A stretch of 58,769 nucleotides of DNA, the filler included, from Sphacelaria rigidula (lineage: Eukaryota), in NCBI GenBank assembly GCA_964200075.2. It is 10 parts of 10 records of this genome, joined end to end, with 100 filler letters (N's around TTAATTAATTAA, not from the genome) between each part and the next. Parts side by side here need not be neighbours in the genome. Positions count along the whole stretch, not along the records: positions 35,323 to 41,109 come from CAXNAA020024474.1; 9 more parts are not named here. The stretch is one strand, 5' to 3'. The position numbers and the translations under genes were made by a program. Positions 7,094 to 55,300 of the stretch are shown here, one piece after another (the first letter of the stretch is position 1; every line of letters begins with the position of its first letter). Under the pieces are notes generated by a model. The model was not told the DNA's origin, made no database searches, and saw only the letters and a program-made list of their open reading frames with translations.

Positions 7094-7591
7094 TCAACTG
7101 CGGAGGCATCCGCGGTTACCTCTCAAATGACATCAGCGTCTGCGCTCGGTCATCAACACCTGTCGTCGATCGAGTTCGTCCGCTCGACGTATCCTGCCCA
7201 CGACTTGCCGTCGGATGGCGGTGAAAAACGATGTCGAGAGGAGGAGGCTGGTGTCGCCGAGCACGCCCACCCGCAGTCACCAAGCAAGGCGCAGACAGCG
7301 GCGGACGTCGAGTTTCGGCGAGAGAAGCGACAAACAGCGACAAACAACTGTTTGTCGCTTTTCTCACCGAAACGCGGCGTCCGCCGCTGTCTGCGCCTTG
7401 CTTAGTGACTGCGGGTGGACATGCTCGACGACGCTAGCCTCTTCCTCTCGACATCGTTTTTTACCGCCATCCGATGGCAAGTCGTGGGCACTATACGTCG
7501 AGCGGACGAACTCGATCGACGACGGGTGTTGATGACCGAGCGCAGACGCTGATGTCAATTTAGAGGTAACCGCGGATGCCTCCGCAGTTGA
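7094..7591. repeat. About 500-bp near-perfect inverted repeat (244-bp arms, 10-nt loop); candidate hairpin RNA or foldback element
   Basis: TCAACTGCGGAGGCATCCGCGG... at 7094 pairs with ...CCGCGGATGCCTCCGCAGTTGA at 7591. About 18 substitutions by eye, no indels. Confidence 0.92.
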
Positions 7592-7744
7592 CACCTCAGA
7601 CCGTTCCAAAGCACCTTTGCGTTTTCCGTAGGTCGAAGTGTAGTGGGTGAGAGGATCGTGTGATTAGAGGACCGCACCGTAGCTCGAAGCACCTCAGTAT
7701 CGACGTTTTCCAAAACCAATCGGGCCAGTCCCTGCAGGTACCAC

Positions 7745-7780
7745 GACCCTGACCCCAACACTAACCCTAACCCTAACCCC
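7745..7780. repeat. Short degenerate telomere-like (CCCTAA)n tract
   Basis: ACCCTGACCCCAACACTAACCCTAACCCTAACCCC. A more degenerate tract lies near 30627-30657. Confidence 0.5.
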
Positions 7781-20700: not shown

Positions 20701-22384
20701 AGATGAACCCAGACAAACCACGCCACATTTAGAGTTTAAAAAAAGCTGTTTGTTCACTGGAAATGTCACTTTTTCCAAGAACGTGTGGATGTTGGGCACA
20801 AATACATGAAAGATAGTCGCGTAAAACCCCTCAACAGGTTTGAGCCTCGCAGTAGGTACATGTAAACTTAGTATTTTACCTCTTCGCTGAGAAGCTTTCC
20901 GTTTTTTTGGGCACATGCTTCCTATGGTTCACGAGCGGCGCACGCTGGCAGTTGCCACTGGTGCGAAATATGCAACCAAGACATACCCTGTGCTATCATC
21001 CATGCTTTCGCAGCAGTACTGGTACTGTGAGTGCAGGGCTGCCTCACCTTGAAGTTACGTGGATCATGCACGCATGTCACATCTTCCCAACTGCCTCTGC
21101 TCTCATCTCTCTGTCTGTACTGCTACTCTGCCATACATACATGACGCGAACTTGTTCCCATAAGCGGCTGCATACGTACAACGGTATGAAACAGTCAGCG
21201 TGCCCGGGCAAGACTGGCACACCTTGAGCATGTTTTTATCTTACACGCATGCCTCATCGTCTCAATTACGCGTGCATCTTATTCCGTAGTCTTCGTACTA
21301 TACTGCAGCTGTAGCTGATGCTGCTACTCCAGTGAAATTGAAGCCCATTAACACAGGCCCGAACAGCATGACACATGTTTGTTGGATCGTTGTGAGCCCC
21401 GCACACAAGCATTCGCGTCGTGGATTCATCGTCCGATCTTCCGGGTCTGAGGGCCAACCAACAGGGAGGGGGCTACAATTTTCTCGGTCGTTGGGTTTTG
21501 GTCTTTCGGCGGGGGGTAGTTCACGAAAAATGGGTATGGTTTTGCGTATCTTCTGCGGAGCCGGGAGTACGGTCACTACTTGCACAAAAAAGGGTAAAAT
21601 AGTACAAAAGGGTATGTACTTGAGCACCATAAGGGTTCACACGTGAACGGAAGAGGGCAAGGATATATTTTAGCAGGGAGCAGGGTCTACCGTCCGGGTT
21701 TGTTCACGAATGTACTCTGATGGGCTGTCCTTTTCCGCGTCGTACTAAAGTCTACAGTACGCGTCAGCACTCAAGAAACTCCTATTTCGGCGAAGGCTCG
21801 CGTCTTATTTTCTCTTCAAATTCAAGACAAATGCTTGAATCCAATTTCCCATCGAGTTCAGCATAAATGACTACAATTCTCATTCTCTCAAATTACCTGT
21901 AAATTGTTCTAATGCCGAAAAATTAAGCAAAGGATTCTCAACTTCCCGATTCTCCAGTGCTGATGCCTACTGTAGTACTATGTGTGAGAATTGATAAAAA
22001 ATGGTCGGGCATCCTGCCCAGACACCTTGTGCGTGGGGCTGAGGCGCCGGAACGTATTTTCGAGGTGTTCAGCCTGCGTGAAGCGCCGCGCCCCAAACCG
22101 AAAAATGCATCACCCTTTCCAGTTCCAAAGGCACCAGGGTGTACCCTTTTTGTGTATTGCCCTTCGAAAAAGTGCAGTGGAATAGGAAATTCCGACAGAT
22201 GAATCGGTTCAACCCTGAGGGCGTGTCTTATAGCACAACTGTTTTCGATCGAAAGAATACGAGCGGTGGAATTGATATGAGCAGAATTTGCTCGTTTTTG
22301 TCGAGTTGGATCCAAGCGAATTTTCAAGCGTTCGATTGAAGGAAGGCAGTAAAATTTGTGAAACGGTACTTGGTCCGTTGTGTA

Positions 22385-23224
22385 CGAGCTGGGCCAGCCT
22401 AGAGGCGGACTTGATGTTTCCAAGCCCATGCTCCCGCGAGTATTTAGAGTTGGACCCTGAAATTTGGCATGGACAATGAATAGGGCATGAAAATATAAAA
22501 TACAGGAGCACCAAAGTTTTTTTTTCATGAGTTGAAGGCATTTTACTGATAACTGAAAAGTGATTATTGCCCAAAACTCACTGAAGAAAAAAAGCTCTGG
22601 TGCTCGTGTAATTTTTTTTTCATGTTCTATTCATTGTCCATACCAAATTTCAGGGTCCAACTCAAAATACTCGCGGGAGCATGGGCGTTTCAAAAAGTGG
22701 GTCGGTAATTCGGAACAGTATTTCGCAGGCCACTCACCGGCCCATGTTTGGTTTTCGTGTATTGAAAAAATGTGTGGGCGCTCTTTAAGGCATAATCAAC
22801 AAGCAAAAGTGGATCAGGTTGATTTTTTTCAATTTTTGTCACTGGTTTAGGGCGTTTTACCATGGCGAAGACTATTTATTCACTAGAACGCCCTAACCTG
22901 TATGAAAAAAAAAATGAAGGCTCATTTTTTTTTTAATTCGGCAATCTTTTGTGGTTCTCTAAGCTAAATTTCGTCGCCATCCGCTAAATGCATAGATCGG
23001 GAGTTTCATAGAGATTTTAGTATTGGCGTCATCTCCCTCACGTATAGGAACTACTTGACATGGGGTTTAATCAACGAGAAAGTATGGGCCCAAAATATTT
23101 AGCAGAGGGGCACCTTGCCCTTGATTAGACGATTAATACGATGTGCGGATCACGGCCCAACACGCCGGTGTAGATGAGATATAGCATTTGGAGCTTAAAT
23201 CCGTTTTTAGGCCGGCCCAGCTCG
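22385..23224. mobile_element. 840-bp non-autonomous DNA transposon with CGAGCTGGGCC TIR and TA TSD (Tc1/mariner-like), containing an internal hairpin of about 260 bp
   Basis: TA-CGAGCTGGGCCAGCCT...AGGCCGGCCCAGCTCG-TA. Internal inverted repeat at about 22424-22686. Collinear homolog at 49761-50593. Confidence 0.82.
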
Positions 23225-23548
23225 TACAGTAGAGACAAACTGTGCTGTCTGTACTGATTGCATGCAGTGTGTCTGGGTGTGTGCGTGCGTGTTGCGTACA
23301 GTAGGAACACCTGTAGAATAAGCGGGCAACATGCAGTACTGACAGTGCAGGGTAATCTGTTCAATCTGCTCATTATGCGACTTAACCCTTTGGGAACCGT
23401 CCCCTCCCGTCCCCGGGCCAGACGCCTCATTATGAGAAGCCCTGACAANNNNNNNNNNNNNNNNNNNNNNNNNNNNNNNNNNNNNNNNNNNNTTAATTAA
23501 TTAANNNNNNNNNNNNNNNNNNNNNNNNNNNNNNNNNNNNNNNNNNNN

Positions 23549-24136
23549 ATGTGACAGGTGAAGATCCCAATCATTTTGGCGATCATTGACAACCATAGAT
23601 AACATTTGAGCCATGGTGTGATTAACTCGTTCGGTGCCACCGTTACCGTTGGGGTGGTAGGCGCTCGTCGCGATTTTGCGAATGCCTAAGAGCTTGTAGA
23701 GTTCTTCCGAAAGATCAGAGCAGAAGTGCGGACCATTGTCAGAGAGAAATCGCTGCGGGCAACCATAGTGCTTAATATAGTCGTAGATTAAGATATTAGC
23801 TGTGCCTGCGGCTGTAAAGTCACCAGCGGTAACTGCGTGCATTGACGCGTGACGGCTAAAGCGATCAGTGAAGAGTAGGATATAAGTGTTCCCACGATCA
23901 GTTGTCGGTAAAGGACCGAAATAGTCAAATGACACCAGGTGACCGGGAGCAATGGGGAGGCTCATGGAAATAAGTGGCCAACGGATGGTTTGCCGTGAGG
24001 TTTCCCGGTATTGACATTTAAAACATCGCCCAATCCAAAAGCGGATTGACGCTTCCATACCAATCCACCAGTAGAAACGCTCAAGTACGCTAAAGTGCCC
24101 GTGACACCAAGGTGGCAGGACGAGTCGGAATGACAT
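23549..24136 (-). pseudogene. Gypsy integrase (HHCC zinc finger and rve core)
   Basis: CHGH...CFKC, VSFDYFGPLP, FTDRFSR, LSDNGPHF, AYHPNGNGGTERVN. Confidence 0.92.
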
Positions 24137-24147
24137 CCTTTGATGAC

Positions 24148-27100
24148 CTATGGGTGCATCAAGAATGGAACATAAATGCGAGTGGGCTCATCGTCAAGCA
24201 AGCGTGCATGGCGGCCAGTGGCAGCGTTTAAATGTGCACTGGAAGGAGATGTCGGGCGACGAACCAGTAGTTGAATACCGGCATCGGTTGTAAAAATAGT
24301 ACCTTTGCGGGCAAGTTCAAAGACATCAGAGGCGAGCGGGGGTGGTAGTGTACCAACCGAGACCAACACTGTTTCTGGAATTGGGACAGGACAGCCAAGG
24401 TGCAAATATTGCATGGTAGCCCGGCACAATGGCTCGGCCTGTTGTTCACGAGCCCAGTCACGATGTGAAAAGCTAGCGAGGAATTCGCGCAAGTGACCTT
24501 CGGCAGGAGAGCCAACCACACATGGGGGCTCAGGAGGAGGTGGAACAGGAGACGGAGCGGGGACACCAACATCAATTTCTACGTCGGGGTCAGGGTCCGA
24601 AGTGTTCGTCTTCTCTTCAGGAGGGATGATCGAAGAGTGTACCGCAGAAGGCGGCGTGGGCGTGCGCGCTGGAGAACGCGATCGACGTCGGGGGCGCGAT
24701 TTTTGTGTGACTGGTTTTGACAAGGTCAGCGACGCGCTGTTGCGGGGAGACAGTGCTCCGTCGTTCGGAGAATGAGGACGCTGAATCGAGGGCGGCGGTA
24801 CGCGAGGGGTGTTCGCGCGGGCGGCAGACCGAGAGCGTGTATTGTCCGAAATAAGATGAACAGTAGTAGGTGGTGGTACGGAAATATTCGCACGAGGACC
24901 GAAAGTACGGAAATCAGCGAAATCGGCGGCGGCCGGTTTCAATCCACTCGACACTGCGTCGTAGGGTAGAGGGCGGGGTTCACCCGTGTGCGTACCTGTT
25001 TCAGGGCAGTGGAGGTCAAGGGCGTAGATAGGCGTTGAAAAACGCCGAATTGGATAGATGCCTGGTTCATCAGGTTCTGTCAACCTACAAGCGGGGCTAG
25101 TATCCACAGCCGTAGGAGGCAGCGGAAGGCGGGAGAGAAGATCAGCATTCCCATTGGTTTTTCCTGGTCGATGTTTGACTGTATATTGGTAGGCTGTCAA
25201 AAACTTCAACCAGCGTTGCACGCGCGGGTTATTTTCACCAACCTTCGCGAGTTGTTCAAGGGCTACATGATCCGTATAAATCTGGAAGGGGACTTGGAAC
25301 AAGTATTGTCGAAGTCGTTTTATAGCCCAGGTAATAGCTCCACCTTCTAACTCCAGGGGACTACAATTGACTTCATTGGGCAAGGTTGCACGGCTGATGT
25401 AAACGATGGGTCGCACGGAGCCATCAAGTTGGGGCTGATTCAATACCGCGCCGAATCCATCTATACTGGCGTCAGTATGTTGTTGAAAGAGGCGAGAGCC
25501 GTCTTGCACGGCGTCCCAGTCCGGAAAACAAATAACCGGTTTTGCGGTAAGTGTTTCCAACAAATCGCGTACAATGACTTCCATATCTTCTGTGAAGACA
25601 AACGCGATGCCTTTTTTAAGGAGGTCCGTAATGGGTCGGATCCGTTTGGACAAATTTGGCAAATATTTGCGATAGTATGACAGTCCACCCAACAAGGAGC
25701 GGAGCTGTGAAATGTTGGTAGGCATGGGCATCTCGGTCATTGCCCGTACTTTATTAGTGTCCGGGTGTAGACCCGCCGGTGAAATAGAGTGGCCTAGAAA
25801 TCCAATTCAGTCGCACCAAGGCGAGCTTTTAACGGAGACAATTTTACATCGTGTGTCCGGAGGCGAGAGAAAAATTCTCGTAAAGTACGCACGTGTGCGG
25901 GGGGAGTAGCATCGAGAGCGATAGCATCATCCAAGTACATGAGGACATGTTCAAGTCCATCTGTGACTCGTTGCATCAAACGTTGGAAGCAACCAGGAGC
26001 CGTAGCGGCACCTTGTTGCATCCGGAGCCACTCGTAAGGGCCGGAAGACGTACAGAACGCTGTTAACGGAACTGTATCTGGGTGAATGGCATTCTGGAAA
26101 ACTCCAGAGGCAAGATCGGAGGTGCTGAAGATTTTCCCTTCGCCCAACGAATCAAAAACTTCATCAATGCGAGGGATGGGAAGTTTTCCCACGACAATGA
26201 CGCGATTCAACCGCTTATAATTAACGGTGATACGTATGTTTCCATCTTTTTTAGGGACTACCACTAGGGGCGAAGCCCATGGAGAGGAGCAGTGCTGAAT
26301 CAACCCAGCTCCTACGTACGCATCCAAGATAGCATTAACGTTTTTAGTAAGGATGGGGTTCGTCCGATAGGGGCGAGAAGCGATTGGTGAAACACCAGGT
26401 TGAAGTGTGATTTCGAAGGGGAGCGTTTTGCAGTGCCCCAGAACCGTTTTGGATCGAGAAAATCGATCTTGATACTCCAATAAAACATCGCTTAGTTCTT
26501 TGATTACGTCGGGCTCCCACCCGGGTCCATGTAAATTAAAGTTGATATCACGCAAGTGGGGTGGCAGTTGCCTCCACAGCTGTAAAAACCTTTCTTGAGA
26601 CTCCGGTGACAAGCGTGTGAGCACTTCATCAGGAGGGTTGGAAGTAGGGTGACCTGGTTCCACGACATGAATATGCGGGGGGGTGAGGTCGAAATATGGC
26701 TCATCGACACAATTAACAGAGGTGTTGGTCGAAGACGCAGATTTGGGCGCCATTGGTTGAGTGGCACATGTCTCGAGTGGAATGTGCAACAAAGGGGCCG
26801 CAGCGATACCTATGATATCGCCGGGTTCCAAATTAGCGTGACCCGTGAGGGGTAATAACTGTTGTCCTACGGAAACAAAGTGCTCGGTGCCGGCAGGTGC
26901 GCCAACCCGAGGAAGTACTTCAGCAAGATAATGGCCCGTGAGGGCAGGCATGCCATTTCGGCGAACAAGTGCAACTTCTAACAGTTGAGGATCATCGGAG
27001 AGGGTAACACCAATACCACCTTCGTATCGGAGGTGATAGACGGCTCCGGTAGCTGCATCATCTTTCTTGTAAGCCAAAGCACCAGCGAGAGTACCAAAAT

Positions 27101-27866
27101 GTTCAAGGTTTAACTCTCCAAGCGGCGCAGAGTGTGATGATATGGGGTAGAGAGTACGATAAGTCCTCTGATCAAATCGCATGTAACTATCTCTGCCCAA
27201 CAGCAAAGCGTGAGCCATGGTACTGTCGGGGACAACATAAGCCCAAACAGCAAGACTCGCAGAACGGTCGGTGTTGTGAAAAAACTGCACACTGAGACGT
27301 ACTGATTTTCGCGTCGTCAAAGGTGTGGTAGAGTCGCCAAAACCACCCCACACACGAGGCTGTGTGGTAATTTCACAAACGTCTGAAGCAGCTCCCATCT
27401 GCTTCATGTGGTCCCACATTGATTCACGAATAAACGTTTGTGGGCTGCCACTATCTATTAAAGAGACACACTTGGCAGGCGTAGCGGCGGAAGGGCCGCA
27501 ATGCAACGCAACACGAGTAGTAAAAGTGGCGGGGTCAACAGACACTTTTCCACCAACCAAGTCTGGACCGTGTTCAGTTAATGTAGATTGGTCAGGATCA
27601 ACTGTGCTAACCGCGAAAACGGACGGTGGATGATCCGCCGGGGGTGCAGAAGACTCGCCAGGATTTATGGGAGGACTCGAAGAAGGAGTATCGCAAGGCG
27701 ACTGGCCATTATTAATCTCATAAATGACCGTCTTCGGTAGGCAGGGGTCGGTATTTGAAAAAGACCCGTGCAAATGGACGTTTATATCTTCGGGTGAATA
27801 GTCAGAGGCATCAGTGAGATCGGATTTAGATTCTTCTGTGATGCTTGATGAAACAATCGAGCTCAA
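24148..27866 (-). pseudogene. Gypsy pol: protease, RT and RNase H, with a 1-bp frameshift near 25797
   Basis: Protease LIDSGSPQTF. RT SPWASPLVVVPKKDG, NYKRLN, MYLDD, LRSLLGGLSYYRKY. RNase H TDASIDGFGAVL, LELEGGAI, YTDH, NADLLSR. Confidence 0.93.
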
Positions 27867-28862
27867 AGTCGTCGCATTACGGAGAGAGTGAGGTCGGGGT
27901 TTTCCGCTTAAGAGAGGTGTACGTGTCGATGCGCGCTCTACTCTGGGGGCATCTCTACGGGCTTCCTCTCACGCCGTGACAAAGGGCGGGGGACTTCCAA
28001 AGTATTTTGGGAATCTGCAGCTGCGTCCAGCTGGAGTGGTGGGGTCAGCATCGAATCATCAAGCGAAGCTTGTGGGCTATCCGTAGGCAAGCTTGGTTGA
28101 GAGATCTGCAATTGTGCAGAGTTACGGTTGTTATGAGAACGATTCAGGGGTAGCTTCGCAGGAGTCGATGAACGCGAAGAACGAACTCTATCGAGCTGGA
28201 TGGGTGTTAATTGGCCCGAAGTGGTCAATTTTAGACCAACAACACTTGAAGCAGTCGAAGGAAGTACTCTACTGCCTGCGCGTGCGGTCACTGAAGGAAG
28301 CCTTTGCCTCAGGGACGGGCGGTCGGTGTACCCACACTTCAGATTTACACTTAATTCTGAAGGACCAAGTCCAGAGTTAAGCGTAGCACCAAGTTGTGAG
28401 TCAACGCGACTGTTACGCTGTTTGCGGAAGGGTGAAGACGGGGGTCGACATGATCGGCCATTCTGAGTATTCCTGCAAAGTGCCGGGGACACGGAGCGAG
28501 AAAATTTCGCCGCGCGCTTCGAGGGCAGGGTGGAGTTAGTCTCCGCAGGTGCTATCGACGGCGCCGGAGACGTAAAAACGCCAGCGTTGGCGCGTCATGG
28601 ATCAGTCCGATCAGTGAGGAAGGAACCAGGGTTTCTGGCGTTAGGATTTGAGTGATCATGATGTGGTCCAGTACGCTGATGTCTATCAGTGTTGGAATGA
28701 CGGCGAGAAGAATCATCGCGTCGCCGAGAAATAGAACTGTCGTAGTTGGTACGACTGTCGCGATGTGTGCGATTGTGTGAGTTGCGAGCATGACGGTTCG
28801 AAGTGCGATAGTCACGCATGCGTTGTTGCCAGCGACGGAACGCGGGCTCGTTATCCTGAAGT

Positions 28863-29324
28863 TCAGAATTTCATTAGACCGGAAGCATTGATACAAGGAC
28901 GGGTGCAATCGCGCATACTGTGTCCGTGACCGTTACAGTTGATACAGCTGTTGGCATGCTGACTGAAGGCCTGGTATCTAGCAGCTTTGGTGAGGAGTGG
29001 GTTCCACAAATACGGATCATCCGTCGTGAAAGACGAAGTGGAAACTGCGTAAACGTCATCCCATGTTTCAGTAGAGTACGGCCAACCATCGAAGGTAGCA
29101 GCAAAAGGATCTCGCTTGTGTGAAACGCTCATTACGGAACCAGCTACGGAAGCGGGTACCCAAGAGGAACGAGGTGAACTCTGGGATCTGTTACGAGACC
29201 CAGAACGGGTAGCGGAAGTGGTGGGAAAATTGGTGGAAGTCGGCTGTGAGCGCTGAGGGGAATACCTGTCACCGCGAATGGCGGGTGTCAAATTATTTTC
29301 TTGATGAACAAAAGCGCTCCACAT
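28863..29324 (-). pseudogene. Gypsy gag C-terminal fragment with a CCHC zinc knuckle
   Basis: CINCNGHGHSMRDC fits CX2CX4HX4C and lies upstream of pol on the same strand. Confidence 0.8.
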
Positions 29325-29584
29325 CGCATCGACTGNNNNNNNNNNNNNNNNNNNNNNNNNNNNNNNNNNNNNNNNNNNNTTAATTAATTAANNNNNNNNN
29401 NNNNNNNNNNNNNNNNNNNNNNNNNNNNNNNNNNNGAAGGAACGTAATGAGCGCCAGAATGTCGGAGGTAAGTCTATAGGAGTAGGAACGGTGCTCCATC
29501 TCGAAAGGGATACGTGGTCAGTGGTCAAACGATTAAGGCAAGCAACACATGAGAACCCTCCCCTCCCTCCCCCCCTAGACGGCG

Positions 29585-29770
29585 AGGGTAGGTCACCTGC
29601 TGAATCGGCATCAATTTCACTGGGAAAAGTACGCTTGATCCGGTTGGACTACCCGCACCGCGATATGAGGGTTGACTTTTTGACCGCTAGGGTAGGTCAC
29701 CTACTGAATCGGCATCAATTTTCACTTGAAAAAAGTATGCGTGATCCAAATGGACTACCCGCACCGCGAT
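29585..29770. repeat. Direct duplication of about 80 bp, period about 104 bp
   Basis: AGGGTAGGTCACCT.CTGAATCGGCATCAATTT...GGACTACCCGCACCGCGAT at 29585 and 29689. Confidence 0.8.
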
Positions 29771-30254
29771 CAAAGGGTGAAGTTCCGGCTCGAATCTTTC
29801 CTTGGTCTGAGATTCGAAGTAATGCTAACGACCAGCGTACACCTGCACCAGCCACCTGGCAATAACATGCCGTTTGTGTGTGCAAACATTTTATAATATA
29901 TAGCCCAACGACGTTTCGGAAAATATTCGCAGCCAATGAAAATCCAATTTTCGGGGTCCGGAGCGCAAAACTTTTTTCCAATAACGGAAAAACTGGCAAT
30001 GGTGAGCATTCAGTTCTTGGGAAAGGTACCCGACCGGTAGGGAACCCTCTCATTGTACATGACAATCGGAATACCTTCGTAATGATATGGCGGTTTCACG
30101 ATTTCACCTATTGGATGGCTGTCGATAGAGCATGGTTGATTTGTTCAAACAATCTGTACTACAACTTCTTTGAAGATATCAAAGTCTCTAATTCGAAATC
30201 GAGCACATAAAAGATTCGCAATCAGGTGGCATAAGCCTTCCATCTACTATTGGG

Positions 30255-31043: not shown

Positions 31044-34000
31044 TTACGTCGCAACACCCTCGAAGCGCGTTGGACGAAAGTCGATCAACAAGCTTGACAC
31101 ATAGAAGACGCCAAAACGATGAGTAAGTCGCAACTGAATACCAAACTCACTCGAAATGCGAGCAGCAACGGCACGAGTCACGCGCAACTTACGCAACTCC
31201 TTCGTAAGGAATTCCGGAGCGGCCTCAAAAATATCCTTGAAAGCCTCCCACAGACGTTCCCCAACTTCAAAACCAACCCAGTCGAGCAACACAATCAACG
31301 AACGGTCATCTGCTTCTGCCACTCGGACAATACAGCCATCTGAAATCGCTCCTGATTGAAAGTATGCTGGAACACGTCCTCAACGTCAGCCGTAATATTA
31401 AGCTGCGAGTCTGCATCAAAACACAAACGAGCTACATGGGCGATCTGAACACGACCCGAAACAATGTTCTGAATCTCAAACACGTGCGGATGGTGAGCGC
31501 CAACCACTCTCCATGGACCAGTCCACGTCGCCATCAACTTGGGTGTAACACCCGGACGACGCACGCGTGCATACAAGACATAGTCACCGACCTCAAAATT
31601 CGGCAATTCCAGCCCCGACGAGGACCCCTCACGTCTACGCGCACGTTCACATGTCCCTGCACTTGAACGTGGAAACGTTATTACAAGTCCAAGACTCCTT
31701 GCAATGCACGCTGTATTTGAATATCGTCCAGAACATCACACTTCCACTCGCCCGCCGACGAAGACGCCAGCACCGAGAAAGACATCCGAGGGGCACGACC
31801 AAACATCACGTGGTACGGCGTACTACCGTAACGACGACGATACGCTGTAGAGCCATCCTACGATAGGGGTGGGGGTATTTTGGGGCATTTGTTGCTCGAA
31901 ATTTCGAGTCAGATCGTCGTTGAANNNNNNNNNNCACACTTATGAGCCTCTTTTTTCCTGCAACCAAATACCCCCCCCCCTATCGTATTAAGCGCCCATT
32001 GCACCGCAGGCAACACATCCACCCGCTCGGAAATCGCTCGACGCTACTCGAGAAGAATAGACCGAAGAGCACGAACTAATCCCTTGACCATGCGTTTACA
32101 CGTACCGTTAGACCACGGAGAATACGCTACCGCAAACTGGTGATCAACGCGCAAAGCCTCTCGCAATCGGGCCAAAGTCGTGGCGGTATCACCCATCCAC
32201 ACACGCGGCACCCCCAAAGTTCAGCACCAATTCAGCAAAGATGCAGCAGTCGATTCAGCAGTACGCACTGCTACTAATTCCAGAGCCACAAAGTCGCTCA
32301 AATCATTCATGATTACCAAAATTTATCGAAACCCTGCACCCTCCGAAAAACCTTGGGAAGTTAGCGGACCACTCTCACCCACGTACAAGAAGTCGAAATG
32401 AACGACTTCATTCGGCGTGGTCCCATGGATCGTTTCGCCGAGCGGGCGGGGAACAACATCGCCCGCCCTCGAGTCAGCACAGTGAAGACACTGGCGGACA
32501 AATTCGCGCACATGAGTTTCTATCCCCTGCCAGGCACGAAACTCTTGCAAGCGCACGAGCGTCGCAGCCACACCACGATGCCCGGTGTCGCGCATGTGCG
32601 CGCAAATCATCAGACGTACCTGCAATTGCTTGTCAGAACTCGGAATCCATGAAGCGTTTCGGCCACGCACATGTAAACGAAACAGACCTTCACTGTCCAA
32701 AATAGCAGTGCCAACGTCCGACTCGAAAGATTGCACATCCGCATCTTCGGCCCCAAGGTCTTTTCGTTGCGCTTGGCGGACAACAGATTTGGACGGCATT
32801 GAGTCATCAGGTTCACACGGACCATACACAGCCACAGTACGCACAGGCAATTGAATTTCAACAGTAGGCACCTGCATGGCCAAACTACCCCAATGACACT
32901 CAAATATATCCGGAAACATTGACACCTGACCATCAGGACGAGAATGGAGCAGCGTCACGGCATGAGCCACCAGACCCTTCGCTGCCGCCCACGCCTGCAG
33001 CCTGCCCTCCGTCCACGATGCAGCCTTCTTCGGAAACGCCATATCTGGACTGAACCATCCTGCCTGCAAATTTCGTAACACCAACCCGAGCACCAAAAGA
33101 GCCGCCATGCACAACGCCAACCAACTCGACTTCACTGGATTGTACCGCCGCGGCTTCGTCCTCGCCGCGGACGCCCCAGGTTTTAGCTGAACACGCATAG
33201 GGTCCACGCGCGCAGGGGGATCACCCATCAGCGAACGACGAAACGGGTTGACGCCGCGATGCAAGATGCCACGCAGGCGTTCCGCTTTGGGAACGCTGAG
33301 GCCTTTCGCCACAGCATCCGTCACGCTCTCCTCTAGCGCGGCCTTCCGAGCGGAATTCTCTTCCGCCGGGTCCATAAATATATGGGGGCCACGCTCCACA
33401 AAGCGTTCCACCGCCTCATCACGCTTCTCGGACGTCTGCCCCTCCGCCTCCTGGAGAGCATCAACCGACAAGCTCACTCTGCAACTGGCCAAAAATGCAG
33501 GCGTCTCGACACTCGAACCGGGCGACGGCATTTGCATTTTGAGGGACTCCAACAGCCGATCATACGGATCGACTCCGAGTCCCCGAAGCGTCGGTAAGCC
33601 CCACAGAACGACACCGTCCGTCCCCGGCATGATCGCAAATGATATCGAGGGTAATTTTGCTGGCCCCCAGGTAGTCCTGAACACCAACTGTAGGGGAATC
33701 GTACGCTCCATGACATTTATACGTTGCCCCGATGCGGTGATGGCCTGCCGCGTCCCGAACGAGAACGTAATGCGAATTTGCTCACCAGGGAGTAAACGCT
33801 CCGCTCCAGCATCTCCGCAATCAGCACCGACACGCTCGTGAAATGGGCGCCTGAATCCAACACAGCGTTGACCGATATGACTCCCCGCGCCCGTTGATTT
33901 GGGAGATATAACTCTGCAGGAACATATTTGTCTTGATCCTCGACCGGCGCCTGCTCCGCCAACTGATTGTTCGTTATCCCCACTTGGCGCCACGGCTGCG

Positions 34001-35150
34001 CGCGCCGCGCAGGCATAGCCGCCCCCTCTGGGGTAAACGACACCGCCGGTGGGTACGTAACCCCGCCCACAGAACCAAATTGCAGCGGTACTCCCGCCGA
34101 CGCAGCAGCGGATACAAATTTCAGCTTGAATCCGGCCGGCTCAGCAGCAGGCGTCTCGCCTTGCTCTGCTGCCGGCGGCGCCGGCACCGAGCCCGACACT
34201 TGAGTGTTCGGTCCCACCTGCACCGCGCGTTGCGGAGCAGCAGTCCCTGCGGCTGAGCCGAACCCAGAACCAGACCCCTGCTGACGCCGCCGCCGCCACT
34301 GCCGCTGCCGCTGCTGCTGCTGCTGCTGCTGGAAACTCGACTGCACAACTTCACCGCTGGAGGATCCGCCTCCGCCACCACCCCGATTACCTTTTCACCC
34401 TTTGTGATTGCGAGGACGCGCACTTGTCTGCCCAGACTCTTCCTCGGAAGACTTCGGGCACTTGCGTGCGTAGTGACCTACCTGGCCACACTGAAAGCAA
34501 GTGATATTGGCGGCGGCACTGCCTGCGGATTTTGATACGCGGTTACGTGAGATCGAAGACTGCTGCGACGAAGTGGATGATTCCCCGGAGACTTCAATCT
34601 TCCGCCATGCCTGAGCCTCAGCCACCACGGTCTCCATAACTAAGTACGGGTCTGACTTCCAAATGGTTTCGTGCTGTAATTGCACAAGCACGGCCTGTTT
34701 GAATTCCGCCAGTGCCAGACCCTCCACCATCGCTCGCGCGATCACCGCAGCGAACCCTGGACGGAATTTGCCATCGGAGGAACGATAAACCATCTCCAAC
34801 TTCCCCATGATTGGCTCCACCCTCTCACGCATGGTCTTCCCCTTGTGGTTTATGGCGACAGCCTTCGGCACGGCCGCGGACGCCTAGGTTAACTTTACCT
34901 AAGCGCCCGCTGCATGCCCTGCATGTTTCTTGATCGCTGCAGCCAATTGCAACGGTCTTATTGTGTGCTTCTCGTAGAATCTTCTCGCAAAAACGCGTTG
35001 AAGGGGGGTAGGCATGGGTTGCGACATGGAAACAACCTGATGCCTTACCGCACCCCCCGAATTCGCATGCTCCACCCGCTTCTCGTATTCGACGTATTTC
35101 GTATAAAAAGAACGAGAAGCACACTCAGAATACAAATTCCCGTAACTGGG
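31044..35150 (-). mobile_element. Second, internally deleted Ty3/gypsy element (gag, PR, remnants of RT and RH, IN, chromodomain-like C-terminus)
   Basis: gag CFQCGQVGHYARKC. Protease VLDSGAHFTSV. RT start PRRYNP...SPDMAFPKK. Integrase HMRDTGHRG...CLHC and HFDFLYVG. C-terminal FEVGDYVL...KLMATWTGPWRV and LLDWVGFEVGERLWE. Confidence 0.88.
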
Positions 35151-38100
35151 AGGCGAGCAAAGCTACGGTAGGGGTGCACTTTTTTCGCGAAATTTTGTCT
35201 GGTTCAGGGGCTCCTAACGATTNNNNNNNNNNNNNNNNNNNNNNNNNNNNNNNNNNNNNNNNNNNNTTAATTAATTAANNNNNNNNNNNNNNNNNNNNNN
35301 NNNNNNNNNNNNNNNNNNNNNNCCAAACCATCCTCCTCAAGTAGTACCCCCCCCCCCCCCCCCCCAAGCTACGCTGTTGACAGCCTTCGTAGTTTCATGT
35401 TGTGGTTCGTGGTACAGCTAACCTGGACATACTGTATACAGCACCACGAAGACTCAGCGGGGAACGCAGCACCAGCACGAGTCGTCTCCGCATGCTCGCG
35501 AGAGTTTTCGGGAAATTCCGACAGCGTACAGTGCATATGCAGGCCACCTGTACTGCTGCTTCTCATGTTTTGTTCTGCGGTACAGTTGGCCTGCATACAC
35601 AGCACATTATAAAGATAGCTTCAGACAGCACCAGTACGGCAAGAGTCATCCCGCACGTTCTCGTGAGTTTCCGGAAACACTCCGGCAGCTCCCACTGCAG
35701 TCAGCGGACAGAACAGTACAGCACAGCATAGTGCTGTACAGTCTGTGTAGCGGACAGCAGACAAGAGCAGTACGAAACATTCCATTCACGCATCCTGGAT
35801 CATAGATACACGCTGCATTTTCCCCTTTTGACTCATGCAGCATGAGCCACGTGATCCATGTACATGTTTTCCACCTTGCGCTTCGTGAGCATGAATCACA
35901 GATGAAGGTTTCCCAACTTCCACTCATACGAGGTGAATCAAGCACCCATGTATCTCCCCGTACATCCCTTCAGCATGAATCATGAGCACACATCCATACG
36001 AGGTGAATCACAGATACATGTTTCCCAATTTCCGTTCATGCAGCATGAATAATTCGTACATGTTCGCCACCTTCGATTTGTATGAAATGAAACAAGTGTA
36101 CATCGTTCGTTTCCATGATTCATACAGGAATTGTTATTCGCACATACTCGAGTACTTGTACCGTGGTACGTCTGATACTACTTGGAGAGTTCAAATTCCT
36201 AGTTCATGATTCGTGCGGTATGACCTTGAACGTACGCCACCATCCGTGCTTTATACTGGATGACTCCTTGGTACATGATTCGAATTTACCATTCGTGGGG
36301 AGTCAACCCATATGAACTTTGATTCGTCCTAACTGTGCACGTTTGAACGGTCTTTGAGAGTTTGTAGGACGCTGGCATGAAGGTGATGAAAACAAGTGGT
36401 AGGTTCGGCACTTTTCCTCAAGTATGGAAAATCCAGAGGTGTTGGTACCCATGCGCACATGGTAGTCACGGGTATTTGTTCCTGGGCTGCGGTCGTTCTC
36501 CGTCTATTGGCTTGGATATAGTACTGAACCCAGCGCGGACCTCACCTGGCAAGTTTTCATGTGCTTGAAACACGTAGCAGGGTACACTAAGGTGCCTCAT
36601 GCTTCTGTACGGGGAGGCCATTATCCCAATGAAGAGCTGCAACAACACAAGCACACGCGGTGCTGTGGTGGCTACTGTCTGTCCCGACCAGGGGGCGGGG
36701 GAATATCATCCCTGTGTGCGTGTAAATGTTGAATGACCTGGGAAATATTCCCGCAATACGCGGCTTATCTTGGGACATGACGGCCCAACGAGGGGACATA
36801 AAAGGTAGAGCTACGCTTGGGAGCGACTGAAGGCAGGGCCAGATCGCGACCGGGTTGTTGTTGCATTGTAGGGTGTATCATTCGACATGATGAACAAATC
36901 CAACAGGGTGTGTTCAAACAGGCAGCTAGTGGTGCATCGTGAACGAATCTTGCGGGTGCACTCACCTTGCACACGATCCAGCAGGAAAGGTACGGAGCAA
37001 GGTTGATCACTCCTACGATTCACCCTGGTGACACTTTGTTGGTACCGGTTGGGTCGAGGTGCTGACGACAAGCGAGCAATACGACACGCACTCGAGTGCG
37101 TCGGTTCGGTACGCTGGTTGCTCGAGACGGCAGAATAGCTTGTAACACGAAGCATCGTTAACACCACTGGCGCAGCTAACGATTGGCGATGTTGATGACG
37201 TATTGAACATTATGCACAGCTTTCACAATTCTTTCGCATGCGGCTACTACTACCGTTTGTTGATGTTTGGCATGAACGCTTGTGGTAAAAACATGAACTG
37301 GATCCTGCCCTCCGTTAACTGGAGCCACGATCGCCAGGCCTCTCGCCTTCATTGGCCACAGCAGTACAAGGTCTAACCATCCCCAGCTTGTGGATCCAAG
37401 CTCGATGGAAATACATGGGCATACAAAACTACACTGACTCACTATCAATCGCACGCTGTTGATTTACGTCTCGCTGATCTCAGGTGTGCGAGTGTGAACC
37501 AACATCACGAGAGGCTTTCCACGTGTGCTCGACGCTCTCCCTTCTGCAGTGTAGAGTTGTCGGTGTGAATGCTGAGTGATGGTGCGTACCTGCGATCCGG
37601 TTATTTCAGCCAGCAACAGTCCCCAGGTTGCTCGAAGCGGCGTGTCTTATGCTGGCGTGGACATGACAGCAGGTTAGACGGATTCTCAACAGTGGAATGT
37701 ATGCTTGCCGACAAAAACGCGACGCAAGTAGAAGGTACTGCTGTACAACCACCACAGATCAGCGTATTGTAACACCCTCGAGCACGAGCATGTCCCGCCA
37801 ATATACTGTCGTTCCTCACCGCGAGTTCTGGACGACTGGCGTATCAACATACATATACAGAGTAGTCAGTGCGGATGTTTGGAAGGCTGGCGGCATGCAA
37901 CACCGCGAAATGAACGTCGAGGATCTCCGTCACTATATTTGGACGAAGCTGTAGTTGCTTATAGTAGTACGAATATCTAGTCACCATGGGCGAGTCGGTA
38001 AAATCTGACGATACTCGATGTGATGATTTTTCCGCTATTCACGTGGGGGTGAAAGGAGGCTGAGGGGTGGGTGCCCGCGATGTTCAATAGCTTGCAGCTT

Positions 38101-38336
38101 TTTGCTTTGCATACTTTAGTCCGATTCCATTGTAGTGCGTAGAGAATGTGTACTGGCCCAGGTTGCGTCAGCAACTCGTGACTCGTGATGGATTCCACGT
38201 GTTTGCTGCTCGAAAATCCTGGACGAGCTGACCTGCACAGCGCTCGTTTTTCTATGCTGGTGACACAGGCAGCAACCTCTGTCTGGACGCGTTCACCATC
38301 GCCCTCAACGAGGCTTCCTCCGGAGGAGAGTCGTAT

Positions 38337-39975
38337 TTGTCGACGAAATACTTACAGCTGGCGTCATTGCAGCTCTGCATTGCTTGCCGCGGCGTAAGCA
38401 CTCTACTAGTGGAAATTGATGGATCCACACCGCGCAGGCTATGGACCGATCCCGCCGAGCAATCTCATAGAACTCGAGTACCTTTGTTACGAGCACATAG
38501 CATCGTATGGATGCCGAGTGCTGACGCCGCAATCATGGCTTGCGATACCAATATCTTGGCCAATGTGCAAAACGTGTACTTTGGCAGGAAGTTTGACCGT
38601 AGTCTGGACCATGTTGTCTGGCCCCCAAAAGTCAGGAAAATTGTGTTCGGGGCCCATTGTGATAAAAAGTCAGCAGTGTTCAACAAACCCATAACGAAAG
38701 TGGTTTGGCCTTCTTCGCTGCAGCAGCTGACGTTCGGAACAGAGTTCAACCAGCCTATCAAAGGTGTAGCGTGGCCTGCGTCGCTGCAGCAGCTAACGTT
38801 CGGAACAGAGTTCAACCAGCCTATCAAAGGTGTAGCGTGGCCTGCGTCGCTGCAGCAGCTAACGTTCGGAAATACCTTCAATCAACCCATCAAGGAAGTG
38901 GCGTTGCCGGTGTCGCTGCAGCAGCTGACGTTCGGAACAGAGTTCAGGCAACCCATCGAGGGTATGGTGTGGCCTGCGTCGCTGCAGCAGCTGACGTTTG
39001 GATATTACTTCAATCAGCCCATCAAGGGTGTGGTGTGGCCGGCGTCGCTGCAGCGGCTAACGTTCGGACATTGGTTCAACAAGCCCATCAAGGAAGTGGC
39101 GTGGCCGGCGGTGCTGCAGCAGCTGACGTTCGGACCAAGGTTCAACCAGCCCATCGAGGGTGTGGCGTGGCCTGCGTCGCTGAACCAGCTGACGTTCGGA
39201 TTAAGGTTCAACCAACCGATCGAGGGTGTGTTGTGGCCTGCGTCGCTGCAGCAGCTAACGTTCGGAATGGCGTTTAACCAGCCGATCGAGGGTGTGGCGT
39301 GGCCTGCGTCACTGCAGCAGCTGACGTTCGGAGATGGGTTCAACCGACCCATCGAGGGTGTGGATTGGTCTGCGTCGCCGCAGCTGGAGACGCTCGAATA
39401 TCACTTTAGCCAGTCCATCGAGGGTGTGGCGTGGCCTTATAGCGGCTGACGTTCGGAGATTGGTTCAACAAGCCGATGGAGGGGGTAGCGTCGCCGGCAT
39501 CGCTGCAGCAGCTAACGTCGGGAAAATCCTTCAACGAGCCTATCGAGGGTGTGGTGTGGCCGGCGTCGCTGCAGCAGCTGACGCTCGAAGATCGTTTTAA
39601 CCAACTCATCGAGGATGTGGCGTGGCCCGCGCTATTACAGCGGCTGGCAATCGGAAGTAAGTTTAATCAGCCGATCGAGGGAGTGGCATGGCCCGGGTTG
39701 CTACAACGGCTGAAGTTCGGAAATAGCTTCAATCAGCCCATCGAGGGAGGGGCGTGGCCGGTGTCACTGCAGCACCTGACGTTCGGCCTTGCCTTCATTA
39801 AGACCATCGATGGTGTGACGTGGCCTGCCTCGCTGCAGCAGCTGAAGTTAGGAGATAGCTTCAATAAATCCATCGAAGGAGTGGCGTGGCCGGTGACGCT
39901 GCAGCGGCTGACGTTTGGCCTTGTCTTCAATAAGCCCATCGAGGTTGTGGCATGGCCTGCCTCGCTGCAGCACTG
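38337..39975 (+). pseudogene. FNIP (IP22-type LRR-like) repeat protein, about 20 x 22-aa repeats, intronless, frameshift near 39437
   Basis: 66-bp repeats encode FNQPIEGVAWPASLQQLTFGxx. A deletion of about 7 nt plus a TAG in repeat 12 splits it into ORFs 38337..39449 and 39476..40030. The N-terminus upstream is also disrupted. Confidence 0.9.
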
Positions 39976-41209
39976 GTGCAGGTGGACTGCAAGAGTGTCG
40001 AGGAATTCCTTATTTCTACATTTTGGCTGATGCACGGATGGGATATGACGGTCCACGATCCAAGCGAGATATAGAAATATCTGGGATTTGCTCGAAGTCA
40101 AGAGTTCGAAAACGCGATCACGAGGGGTGATCAATGATGGCGGAGGTNNNNNNNNNNGTTCGCCGTCGTTGGATTAGTACGCTTGACTTGAGTATCGGTT
40201 TGAGTCATGGCTTTCCTTTGATTGTCTTGATGAAATGATGGCAAGTTAAAGCATTGAAGCTCTGACGGCGGGGAGGCATGCGATGCATACGTTTTTTACG
40301 GTGTTGCATAAGCAAGAGGCCAGGTGCCAGGTGCATTTTTGACGTGTTGGATGCTTATTTCCTTTTACCGTGAGGATGATTTATCATTCGGCTGTTGCAC
40401 TCCGTTGTGCAGGTGTTGAACGTACAAAGAGTGCATTTTGCATGTTGAGAAGTACCTCGTCTCGGATGAGAGGGACGATGGGTCACGAATGCTCTGGAAT
40501 TTGACGTTGATTGTCATTACCGGTTTTGAGCCGGTGAAGAGTCAAGAGACTTGTTTTGGGCGAAGATTTGAGATTTTGGCGCTAGCTATCGCTATGTAAC
40601 TCGAAGTGGTGCAAGTAGCGTGATTGCATGTGCATGATGGACGACATTTTTTGGGGTCTCTTGCGAGTTGTTCGGGACAAGCTTGTATGGAGCTGTTGTC
40701 GAAAGCAGCGGAAGAGATTGTATTTCTTTGCGGAAAACGACGGTACTATCAGACACCAATGATGCCTGAGTTTATCAAGCTCTGATATAACTACTTGTTG
40801 GTAGCAGAGAGCTTTAGAGTTGCTGTAGACTCTAGCCACCATTGTTACCTAAGGTTAGGGACATTGTGTAGGTGGAGTTGCGGGTCTGATTGCCGGACTC
40901 TGAATGTTTTATGGGTAATTACGCAACTTTCGAAGGTTGTTGTTTTTCTTACTTATTTACTTTTTTCACCATTTTTCGGGGGTCCCAGTTTTGGGGGGGA
41001 AATCTCGATCCAATCGGACCCCCGTAAAACGCGTAAAACGGTAACGATAAATAAAAGAGTCATCCTACGACAGGGGGGGGGGTATTTGGTTGCACGAAAA
41101 AAGAGGCTCNNNNNNNNNNNNNNNNNNNNNNNNNNNNNNNNNNNNNNNNNNNNTTAATTAATTAANNNNNNNNNNNNNNNNNNNNNNNNNNNNNNNNNNN
41201 NNNNNNNNN

Positions 41210-52328: not shown

Positions 52329-55300
52329 AGATATGCCATGAGTTACAGCGAGGAGGGTTTGGTCGAAGCTCGCGAAATTTTCTTGTGCTCGAGAGCTTAC
52401 ACCGTACCCATGGAACGTTCGACCGCGGGTTTGGAGCGATGCAAATACTGGTATTTGATACTAGATGTATCTGTGCGGTGTGGAAAACGATGGAATGCGT
52501 CAGCACTGCCTTTTGTGTTTTTCATGGCGCTATCATCTTTCGCTTTCGGCCTTTGCGTCTTCGCGCTCAATTTGTTGGTGTTGTCTTGCAAGGTGCGCAG
52601 AGGCCTCCCTCGGAATATCGATACGAGGCTACAACAGTTCGTGATTGTAGGCTTCTGTGCTCATGCAACGTGGTTGTTGTTCCCGTCAATTGTTCCCAAG
52701 CGGTATATATCCGCGCAGGCTCTCCAGTTATTAACGTGCCGAAAAATTCGGTGGATTGGTCAGTACTACTTACGGGAGGGGGAGGGGGGGGGGGGGGGGG
52801 GGGGCTTCTTTTTTTTTTATGGGGGGGGGGGGGGGGGGGGGGGTTCCCCGGGGGGGGGGGAAAAAAAAGGGAGCGGGGAAGGGNNNNNNNNNNNNNNNNN
52901 NNNNNNNNNNNNNNNNNNNNNNNNNNNTTAATTAATTAANNNNNNNNNNNNNNNNNNNNNNNNNNNNNNNNNNNNNNNNNNNNTACAGCGAATGATCAAA
53001 GCCACTCTCAATCGTATCATCTACTCTCAATCTCACGAAAACACTGTTATATATGGGTGTAAGCTAGGGAATATGCTGTGCGTGCAACTCATACATCAAT
53101 AGAAGGTGGAGATGCATGTACCTGTGATTCACCTTGTATGAATGCGGAGGAAACGTGTACCTTCGACGGTGTACCGCACGAATCACGAATTAGTGATGTG
53201 CACATTCCAAGTAGAATACGAAGAACGAACCCAAAGCATGTACAAATCGTACAATTGATTTATCTAGATCCTGGATGAGTCCAGTCACGCGTTTATTCGT
53301 CACCATACAGACTTTTGCCTGACCCCAGATTTGCTTTCACTGGGAATAAGGGCGTTATCGTAACGTAATATTTACTCTTTTTCGTTCCAATCTTGACCCA
53401 CACTCTCAAGCGCGGACCAGGATGTTCGAGCGAGGTTTCAAGCAAAGTAGTATGTTGTAGTTGAAAGGAGCCCAGACAATTCGTTGTCATTGCCTGAGCC
53501 AGTCACGTTTATGATTTTGCACAGGTGCGAAAGGCTCTCATAACTCGAAATAAATCCATACCCCCAAACCGACTGTCGAAAGCTGGGTAAGTGCCCTTTC
53601 CCCGGCTCCCGTCAGATGTAACAAGACCGATGCCACTGGTTTGCCAAACATCTCTGCAATCTATATAACGCAAGTACTTTGGAACCCAAGTGAAATGCAT
53701 CCGATCATGTTCGGAATAGAAATTCGTTGGTATCAACGCTTTACAGGTTGGACAAATGGGCAATTTCGTTTGAACTAAACTCCCCGTCCTCGGCACTGCT
53801 CTTTCATCGAAGTGCGTCCTGGTTCGACAGTGCGTGCAATCGAGCTCAGCGGATGAATGCTGTGCATCCTAGTAAGGAACCAACCCCTGCAGCGTCTCCA
53901 GTCTGTGGATCCTCGAAGCACTCAACCCGGATACGTGTACAGAGCTGACTCCGAGGTCTACGATTCAATTGTGAAGAACGGAATAGGGAATCAGGGAAGG
54001 AACCAACAACCGCCACTTCAGCCCAACAGACCCAATCAACAAAACTAGGACAAACTAACAACGATGGTAAACGAAACCATCAACTCGTACACAGTCGAAT
54101 AACGAGAACGTCGCATTTTACTGCACAATACTTTCACCCAGGAAAAAAGCTGAGGAAGGAATGTACAAGTAGTAATTTAAGCGGAAACTGATCAGAATGG
54201 AGACAAACCTTACCCCACGACAAAAACACACTAGAAGGAAAGACCTGAAATATGAATGAGCTAGTGAGGTGGCGGGGCGGGAACCATCTAGCATCAAAAT
54301 GCGCGAGCACGAATACTGGTTCTCCTTTAAGCCATGCCTACCATCGGCCAGGAAAAACGACAACCGTGCGCTTTGGAGCCCAAGTGCGACAATGACGAGA
54401 AAAAAACACTACTCGTGCGTCATTGCTGTACAAGACGAGCACCAAGCGACACACATGTACCGTTGTTGGTGACAAGCAGCAACAATAACACCTCGGGTGG
54501 CAAAAATAGGGGAAAATCCGTAAAATCAAGGAACGTGCCGAGAACATCTTTACAAATGGATACCTGGATTCATATTCGAGGTCATGTTCTATCGCCCCCC
54601 GAGTACCACGTACATGTATGCCATGTTCAGTACCTTATGCGCGCAATAGCAGCAGGTTTGAAACAGATTTTTTTCCAGACGTCAAGGGGTTCAAGTCCAT
54701 TGTTACACCCGCCTGCAAGATGTCAAAGACTTGTTTCTTTTCTCGGTCTTTGGCCTACTCGCAATCAACCCCTTTCAGACGAGCCCATATTTTAGCACGT
54801 GACACAAACCACCCCCCCCGCCCGGTACATTTTTTACTCACCGCCCTTCCTTCTTGCACTTTGGTATCTGAGCAGGAGATGAGCTCTTTCACCGCCCGTC
54901 GACTGCTATCGCATGCCAAAATGGATACACTACTAATATATTTACCAACCCCTCTGCTGCACACACTGTCGGACGGCGTTCCCACAACAAAAAGAAACAT
55001 ATGCAGAACATCGGGTTTTGCACCCCACACGCTGTCCCGACCTTGCTGCTTCTCTGGTGAGCAATCCATTCCTTAGTTTCCACATCGACGACCACCCTAC
55101 CATGGTGCAAGTACGCGACCTCCGTGAACGTCTGGACACATGTGGACACGACAGAGGTTGATCTTACACCACCACGTCAATGCCATCGTGAATCTTGTCC
55201 ACGAAGTCTTCGATCGGGACGCACGACGACCACCACTGTTATCATGGCAAGAGGAGCAGGGAAGGCGGAGAAAAAAGGACCGCGTCCATCACGGGAAGAA

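Follow-up and report, generated by a model that had tools for sequence, protein, structure and literature searches.

A decaying, probably two-exon FGxxFN (FNIP) leucine-rich-repeat gene with a row of variable residue pairs in the brown alga Sphacelaria rigidula

The DNA considered here, which we call the window, is a stretch of 58,769 nucleotides from the genome of the brown alga Sphacelaria rigidula (GenBank assembly GCA_964200075.2), made up of ten pieces joined through spacers. One of these pieces, positions 35323-41109 from record CAXNAA020024474.1, carries a tandem array of 22-residue units of the FGxxFN type, known in Pfam as FNIP (PF05725), and in each of these units the two residues that follow FG, the slot, change from one unit to the next. 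Only this 5.8-kb piece is contiguous with the array for certain. The locus is very probably a two-exon leucine-rich repeat (LRR) gene of the FGxxFN family, of the subclass typified by the giant-virus protein CroV539, that resides in the brown-alga genome as a decaying copy with a ridge of variable slots. The features are collected in Table 1, from which it can be seen that the complete array is contained within one exon.

Table 1. Features of the FGxxFN gene, in window coordinates
Feature	Position	Strand	Basis or detail
Probable exon 1	37579..37672	+	Frame open from 37576; ATG at 37579 and 37663; CAG/GT donor after 37672
Probable intron, 596 nt, GT..AG	37673..38268	+	Contig depth break at 38266; splice sites
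Start of exon 2: family-conserved N-terminal region, then irregular cap repeats	38269..38678	+	Alignment A1
FGxxFN/FNIP array, 20 tandem units of 66 bp (22 residues)	38679..39991	+	In-register cut from 38679
Slot, the final two codons of each unit	38739-38744, then every 66 bp; register -7 past unit 12	+	
Exact duplication of one 66-bp unit including its slot	38730..38871	+	76-nt exact repeat, offset 66
Unit 12, 59 bp instead of 66	39405..39463	+	7 bases gone after 39437; frameshift, TGA at 39447-39449
High-copy repeat fragment cutting unit 20 mid-unit	39972..40147	.	Contig depth; followed by a 10-N gap, 40148-40157

The preliminary description of this DNA had recognised FNIP repeats and an LRR-like solenoid, and profile, structure database, model and fold search all agree on this. 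With the Pfam FNIP profile (cut-off 21 bits) the first frame scores 190.2 bits (E 5.3e-57) over seven stretches and the second 97 bits (E 6.9e-28). The sequence matches CroV588 (PDB 6NYR) at E 1.6e-150 and CroV539 (PDB 7ZAL) at E 2.7e-63, and the FGxxFN motifs fall in register in both, in the case of CroV588 along a stretch of more than 200 residues. The first frame (405 residues) was modelled with AlphaFold from 32 aligned sequences (alignment A1), and the model has a predicted local distance difference test score (pLDDT) of 84.6 overall and of at least 96 across the repeats, with a short strand at unit positions 16-18 that recurs every 22 residues. Foldseek places 7ZAL first among the relatives of this model (E 1.1e-18, template-modelling score 0.81 on the target, 38% identity, probability 1.00) and 6NYR next, also at probability 1.00, with ordinary LRR proteins far lower. 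Thus the profile, the 22-residue period, the FG..FN spacing, the variable xx and the fold are all those of the FGxxFN/FNIP LRR solenoids, and the array is a member of that family.

The slot is the xx of FGxxFN and corresponds to positions 8-9 in the numbering of the crystal structures. In the model it is predicted to lie two residues past the strand, directly after FG, in every turn of the solenoid. This fits the earlier proposal that the slots form one variable stripe, as they take the same place in each 22-residue turn of the model and the same residues are put at the rim of the concave face in the crystal-structure paper (Huyton et al. 2022, PMC9525666). With the strand register of the model and the published structures taken together, the slots would be exposed on the surface. 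Huyton et al. also describe xx as the most variable position of the family and a likely ligand site.

The unit matches the consensus LxxLxFGxxFNQPIExVxW/LPxx, and its sequence thereby assigns the array to the CroV539-type or "WP" subclass (FNQPIExVxW/LP). CroV539 shares with the window gene the 22-residue unit, this consensus including the WP, and an xx placed right after FG, but it is a viral protein with 12 repeats that forms a cap-swapped dimer, whereas the gene described here appears to be cellular and is a broken copy, with 20 units, a probable intron and an N-terminal region specific to brown algae. CroV588 also holds FGxxFN in register; the second half of its unit, however, reads ENVLP where the window gene has GVxWP, and the protein carries a histidine ladder and closes into a ring of 25 repeats, none of which is seen here. 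The FNIP families of brown algae have the same repeat and the same N-terminal region (alignment A1), and from these relatives the window copy differs in its frameshift, in its 3' truncation and in having a more uniform scaffold than most of them.

The array is detected by Tandem Repeats Finder as a single block at 38706-39972 with a period of 66, 19.3 copies, 74% matches and a score of 1079. Likeness to the repeat ends after about 15 codons of unit 20, and the slots of units 1-19 are therefore the ones compared. Cut in register, they reproduce exactly the 19 slot pairs read in the preliminary description, of which 17 are distinct. The two slot positions (21 and 22 of the unit) hold 10 and 11 different residues and have entropies of 3.12 and 3.29 bits, and every other position of the 19 units has 1.56 bits or less, so that the check by per-position entropy suggested at the outset comes out with the slot on top. 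The residues that hold the motif together are well kept over these units: F1 in 19, N2 in 16, F19 in 14 (with L in 3), G20 in 17, P4 in 15, W10 in 17 and P11 in 18.

The same contrast exists in the DNA, where it is far above chance. Among the 18 intact units the mean pairwise difference is 0.69-0.74 at the first two positions of each slot codon, compared with a mean of 0.33 and a maximum of 0.62 for the 20 third positions of the scaffold; the third positions of the slot codons, at 0.54 and 0.58, lie below the slot first and second positions. The scaffold had been called strongly conserved, with the whole slot hexamer replaced between near-invariant flanks. The contrast between slot and scaffold is real, but the mean pairwise amino-acid identity of the scaffold is 0.70, which makes the units alike yet short of near-invariant, and one identical hexamer occupies the slots of units 1, 2 and 4. 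Scaffold and slot are moreover exactly duplicated together in units 2 and 3, where 38730-38805 equals 38796-38871. These two units had been considered as a case of slot-only replacement, in that identical scaffolds are followed by different slots; a shift of the register shows that slot and scaffold were duplicated as one, and the candidate was dropped.

A search for relatives returned 546 proteins with E <= 0.001 among 7999 candidates examined, and the family statistics that follow are taken from the best 120 of these 546. Wherever an organism name is given in this set it is that of a brown alga (Scytosiphon, Ectocarpus, Pylaiella, Ascophyllum, Hapterophycus and Sphacelaria). Of the eukprot rows that come without a name, P0020, P0062 and P0076 carry gene-model identifiers that we take to be of the Symbiodinium type, and P0100 has the prefix Undpi1, presumably the kelp Undaria. 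The closest match is a Sphacelaria rigidula fragment with 71% identity over 52% of the query, and the nearest proteins are 44-74% identical to the window frame in alignment A1 and 30-71% by BLASTP. When the 954 units of the 120 proteins are pooled, the slot is again the most variable place, with 4.04 and 3.91 bits, followed by position 6 with 3.38; and in 94 of the 97 homologues with at least seven units it is less conserved than seven other exposed positions. The window array is ordinary in its slot identity (0.07, against a family median of 0.08) and is unusual only in the uniformity of its scaffold, whose identity of 0.70 ranks 7th of 98 arrays by hand count, and whose exposed positions are 0.57 identical where the family median is 0.20.

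What, then, maintains such a difference between slot and scaffold? One answer is that the slot is under active diversifying selection, as part of an immune-type repertoire encoded in the germline, with gene conversion homogenising the scaffold and the slot hexamers kept different. By the Nei-Gojobori method the 18 intact units give proportions of synonymous (pS) and nonsynonymous (pN) differences of 0.40 and 0.16 in the scaffold and a pN of 0.72 in the slot, so that replacements in the slot exceed silent changes in the scaffold. All four of the first and second codon positions in the slot are more diverse than any of the scaffold's 20 third positions. However near or far two scaffolds are from each other, their slot distance is saturated, at ~0.67 per site (Spearman -0.004 and 0.03), and the most similar ones are no exception: in unit pairs with 7-10 scaffold differences the difference is 0.22 per third position versus 0.64-0.68 per slot site. 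Contig depth hints at many similar units in the genome: summed over the consensus unit it exceeds the depth of single-copy contigs several hundredfold, although this is not a copy number.

Against this stands the comparison between genes. Close homologues were compared in 19 pairs (65-90% identity, 152-155 units); the first and the second slot residue differ in 0.36 and 0.43 of units, and positions 6 and 12 differ in 0.43 and 0.41, so that the slot does not change faster than other exposed positions. The third positions of the scaffold are also G-biased (197 of 360), and because of this bias the silent sites are not a clean neutral yardstick. The recurrence of one hexamer in three slots, the exact duplicate that takes its slot along, the broken state of the window copy and the Pfam result for signalling domains all argue in the same direction. 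No NB-ARC, TIR, ROC-COR or kinase domain was found in the window frames and homologues scanned, where only FNIP passes in Pfam. In the Pfam column for the best 120 homologues the other families given are PF13306, PF13360 and PF25419, which we take not to be accessions for any of those four domains. For the diversifying selection proposed in the preliminary description the evidence is thus mixed: within the array slot replacements do outrun silent scaffold changes, but between close homologues the slot keeps pace with positions 6 and 12. Positive selection on the slot is suggested and nothing firmer, and its full form, an immune-type germline repertoire with actively diversified slots, we regard as doubtful.

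A second answer is that no loop of the unit is under less constraint than the slot, which has drifted neutrally in old units, with no bearing on specificity, the contrast being produced by constraint and homogenisation of the scaffold. A slot that accepts nearly any residue (269 distinct pairs among the 954 family units, with an effective number of ~198), that differs between close homologues at the rate of other exposed positions, and whose saturation is independent of scaffold distance is what such drift would yield. However, slot diversity exceeds silent-site diversity in the very same units, which is unexpected unless conversion spares the slots, and the slot codons themselves vary less at their third positions than at the first two. 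In addition, in the solved relatives the slot residues line the face by which LRR proteins usually bind, according to the crystal-structure paper (PMC9525666). Neutral drift is possible, and we keep it as a tentative alternative to the favoured reading of a binding ridge on a decaying LRR gene.

The slot had also been likened to the code of transcription activator-like effectors (TALEs), in which a repeat-variable di-residue specifies the target. TALE repeats are helical, ~34 residues long and bind DNA, and a small alphabet of di-residues maps to the bases. In a code of this kind each slot pair would read one unit of a polymer such as DNA, and the likeness is formal: two variable residues in a fixed place within a conserved tandem repeat. 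The fold and the repeat length are different, as the FGxxFN unit belongs to a 22-residue beta-solenoid LRR and not to a helical repeat. There is no small alphabet either; the pairs are nearly all different here, 17 of 19, and the four commonest make up only 64 of the 954 pairs of the family. Mutual information between positions 21 and 22 is barely above that of shuffled units (0.33 versus 0.28, standard deviation 0.02), which means that the two residues vary nearly independently. On these grounds the TALE-like code is rejected, and we give it next to no likelihood.

Two observations on unit 10 (39273-39341), the unit nearest to the array consensus, may be added. The depth of contigs summed over this unit is 3,000-9,500 in all four public sequencing runs that were aligned to the locus, and at position 39311, where the window has A, most contigs covering the unit have G. 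This hints that near-identical units are numerous elsewhere in the genome, with the proviso that summed depth does not equate to copy number.

Ahead of the array, the start of exon 2 encodes a region that appears, on alignment A1, to be a constant part of these proteins. None of its 32 sequences departs from L41, R53 and P67, and C49, C52 and R82-V83-P84 are nearly invariant. Pfam gives the region only a weak FNIP match (E 0.033). When the first 110 residues (38232-38561) were used to look for longer proteins six were found, four with FNIP and two that are short and without a Pfam family, and no new architecture occurred among the six. A PDB sequence search with the N-terminal 149 residues returned only a match of the cap repeats to 7ZAL and 6NYR, and a language-model look-up with the N-terminal 185 residues of a homologue gave only rows at chance level (at most 0.84); the nearest rows that bear a family, one giant-virus LRR/F-box cluster among them, score 0.76-0.77 and are likewise at chance level. 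The model of 38269-38560 contains two helices with a pLDDT of 50-68. The N-terminal 110-150 residues are thus, as far as sequence comparison goes, conserved within the family and without relatives beyond it in these searches. An F-box had been suspected at 38080-38180. With Pfam at E up to 10, none came to light in the N-terminal 149 residues, in two frames lying over and beside 38080-38180 or in three full-length homologues, and the precomputed Pfam column for the best 120 homologues lists none; the place itself falls within the probable intron, and the suggestion is not supported.

The structure of the gene upstream of exon 2 is derived from contigs of the four public runs (X1, X3, X7 and X9), which were aligned to 38100-40140. 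X1 and X7 contigs have 0 differences over 38266-38735 and continue leftward into unlike sequence, and at 38266 the depth rises from 4.3 to 140 in X1 and from 0 to 84 in X7. The DNA-like contigs of X3 and X9 are uninterrupted through 38100-38456 at a depth of ~25. The consensus of the loose ends of X1 and X7 agrees with window positions 37640-37669 at 24 of 30 letters (hand count). A 22-letter piece of this consensus has no match in the window at up to three mismatches. A 16-letter piece matches 37654-37669 with two mismatches, where 0.52 chance matches are expected, and exon 1 is therefore proposed at this place. When 37672 is joined to 38269 the frame is kept from the ATG at 37579 or at 37663, and an AG acceptor ends at 38268. 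As judged from these contigs, exon 1 probably runs to 37672 and, after an intron of 596 nucleotides, exon 2 probably begins at 38269. Given contigs that are guessed to be RNA, this copy appears to be still transcribed and spliced.

The preliminary description regarded the copy as pseudogenised, and it does have the marks of one, in spite of its apparent transcription: a 7-bp deletion, a 3' end cut at a high-copy repeat, and worn distal units. The deletion in unit 12 is not the error of one assembly, because the contigs of X1, X3 and X7, which come from two studies and cover 39303-39571, show 0 differences and 0 gaps there. At the 3' end the summed contig depth of the DNA-like runs reaches 21,693-29,614 in the two full bins of 39963-40100 and ~6,200 up to 40140, compared with a single-copy depth of ~25 at the locus (X3, X9). 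Loose contig ends are numerous at 39972, where other copies of the repeat have a different left flank. The C-terminal cap that several homologues possess is missing. Core residues that are rare in the family (<1%) number 3 in units 1-10 versus 10 in the eight distal units (11 and 13-19), with a family mean of 0.33 per unit; one of these ten is at position 11, which the family pattern fixed as P. Contigs of X9, which belongs to another study, differ from the window at 38538, 39738 and 39869 and in no slot, a comparison of contigs only that covers few sites.

An alternative for the locus as a whole would make the gene a piece of an inserted, endogenous giant virus and not a host gene. There is a published tie between brown-alga FNIP genes and giant viruses, the nearest relative of the 121 FNIP proteins of Saccharina japonica being CroV (Ye et al. 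2015, PMC4421812), and a virus-like region of Ectocarpus, similar to the virus EsV-1, holds an FNIP pseudogene (Delaroque and Boland 2008, PMC2373305). The best structural relatives found here are CroV proteins too. However, the account of the latter authors has EsV-1 itself without FNIP repeats, and the window gene has a probable GT-AG intron with contigs that look spliced. In the four other long frames scanned within 35323-41109 no Pfam family was matched, in a true context of only 5.8 kb. Viral contigs yielded two pattern matches, neither of them confirmed, and hence no relative, by a method that finds only close relatives. A virus insertion is very unlikely in our view; with its probable intron the locus has the look of a host gene, and its family may have been linked to viruses long ago.

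The rest of the window can be described briefly. Its ten pieces are of 5787 nt each (the last of 5786), and the spacers, at 5788-5887 and then every 5887 bases to 52884-52983, consist of 44 N, a 12-letter linker with stops in all frames and a further 44 N. Frames of a Ty3/gypsy-type retrotransposon lie on the minus strand at 23549-28591 (reverse transcriptase E 2.9e-16, RNase H E 5.1e-26, integrase core E 2.1e-08), and their overlap suggests frameshifts. An open frame of 604 residues at 32323-34137, also on the minus strand, ends close to an integrase zinc-binding domain (H2C2, E 1.8e-08) that it encodes and probably belongs to another retroelement. As these frames are in other pieces of the window, they need not be neighbours of the array in the genome. 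There are also a CTG/GCTGCC simple repeat at 34280-34331, tandem repeats at 68-480 (period 123, 3.4 copies, 78% matches) and 29578-29778 (period 106, 1.9 copies), and, inside a piece, a telomere-like run of the CCCTAA type at 7746-7781 with three copies of a 12-mer.

The reading we favour, that of a decaying two-exon FGxxFN gene with a variable ridge, brings these features together as follows. Each 22-residue unit forms one turn of a beta solenoid. Both phenylalanines, that of FG and that of FN, are buried in it, and the residue pair between them protrudes at the rim of the concave face. Some twenty slot pairs in line would then make a ridge that accepts almost any residue and that, together with the concave face, might set the binding partner, most likely a protein. 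The array would have grown by duplication of whole units, as there is one exact duplicate (38730-38871). The scaffold may be kept alike by folding constraint, by codon preference and probably by gene conversion, with the slot staying different; the units would be old, with the slot free to take any residue and the other exposed positions limited to two to four. The decay of this copy consists of the 7-bp deletion, which ends the frame after about 12 units, the high-copy repeat that cuts the 3' end and the wear of the distal core residues.

Several points weigh against parts of this reading. X1 and X7 are RNA by a tool's guess, and X3 and X9 DNA-like with a single-contig depth of ~19-27. The exon-1 match of 24 in 30 depends on a consensus of two contigs that agree with each other at ~0.85-0.87, and X1, X3 and X7, in which the 7-bp deletion recurs, all bear the label of the same organism, and their source may be the assembled strain itself. 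The statistics on the family cover the best 120 of 546 matches and only those units that fit the search pattern. Finally, Huyton et al. (PMC9525666) know of no FGxxFN protein with an established ligand or function, and because of this a role in binding is something that we infer.

Much of the surrounding picture has already been published. The variability of xx, its likely role with ligands and the idea of large repertoires are found in PMC9525666, where large families are described as having evolved through xx variability and are compared to lamprey variable lymphocyte receptors (VLRs), and where 104 brown-alga sequences (from Ectocarpus, spelled "Endocarpus"), mostly with the WP sub-motif, are included. 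Large FNIP families in brown algae and their suspected virus link are likewise already described (PMC4421812, PMC2373305), and FNIP is listed with the largest orthogroups of brown algae that have domains of putative viral origin (bioRxiv 10.64898/2026.04.27.720984). The likeness of the family to lamprey VLRs consists of a conserved LRR frame, variable residues on the ligand side and large family size, and it extends equally to the LRR-ROCO and NB-ARC-TPR candidate receptors of brown algae (PMC3341825, PMC11378527). The window gene is unlike any of these receptors in that it has no somatic assembly and no exon-per-repeat organisation, and in that no signalling domain was found.

The window gene is therefore, on the reading given here, an ordinary damaged member of a large and known brown-alga family. 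That family deserves attention because it is among the largest in brown algae and contains no FGxxFN protein with a known ligand. Within the array the slots are saturated and yet the scaffolds around them resemble one another down to their silent sites, a pattern expected from selection for diversity combined with gene conversion. It may be, though we consider it quite unlikely, that the FGxxFN arrays of brown algae are a variable recognition repertoire carried in the germline, with hundreds of units whose scaffold is homogenised at the level of DNA, slots that are selected against homogenisation, and a specificity, for instance for viral or other pathogen proteins, that is set by the row of slots. 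The excess of slot over silent change within the array and the very high summed depth of the consensus unit are compatible with this. If this were true, such a recognition repertoire would constitute a second LRR-type repertoire in brown algae, beside that of the ROCO-LRR genes.

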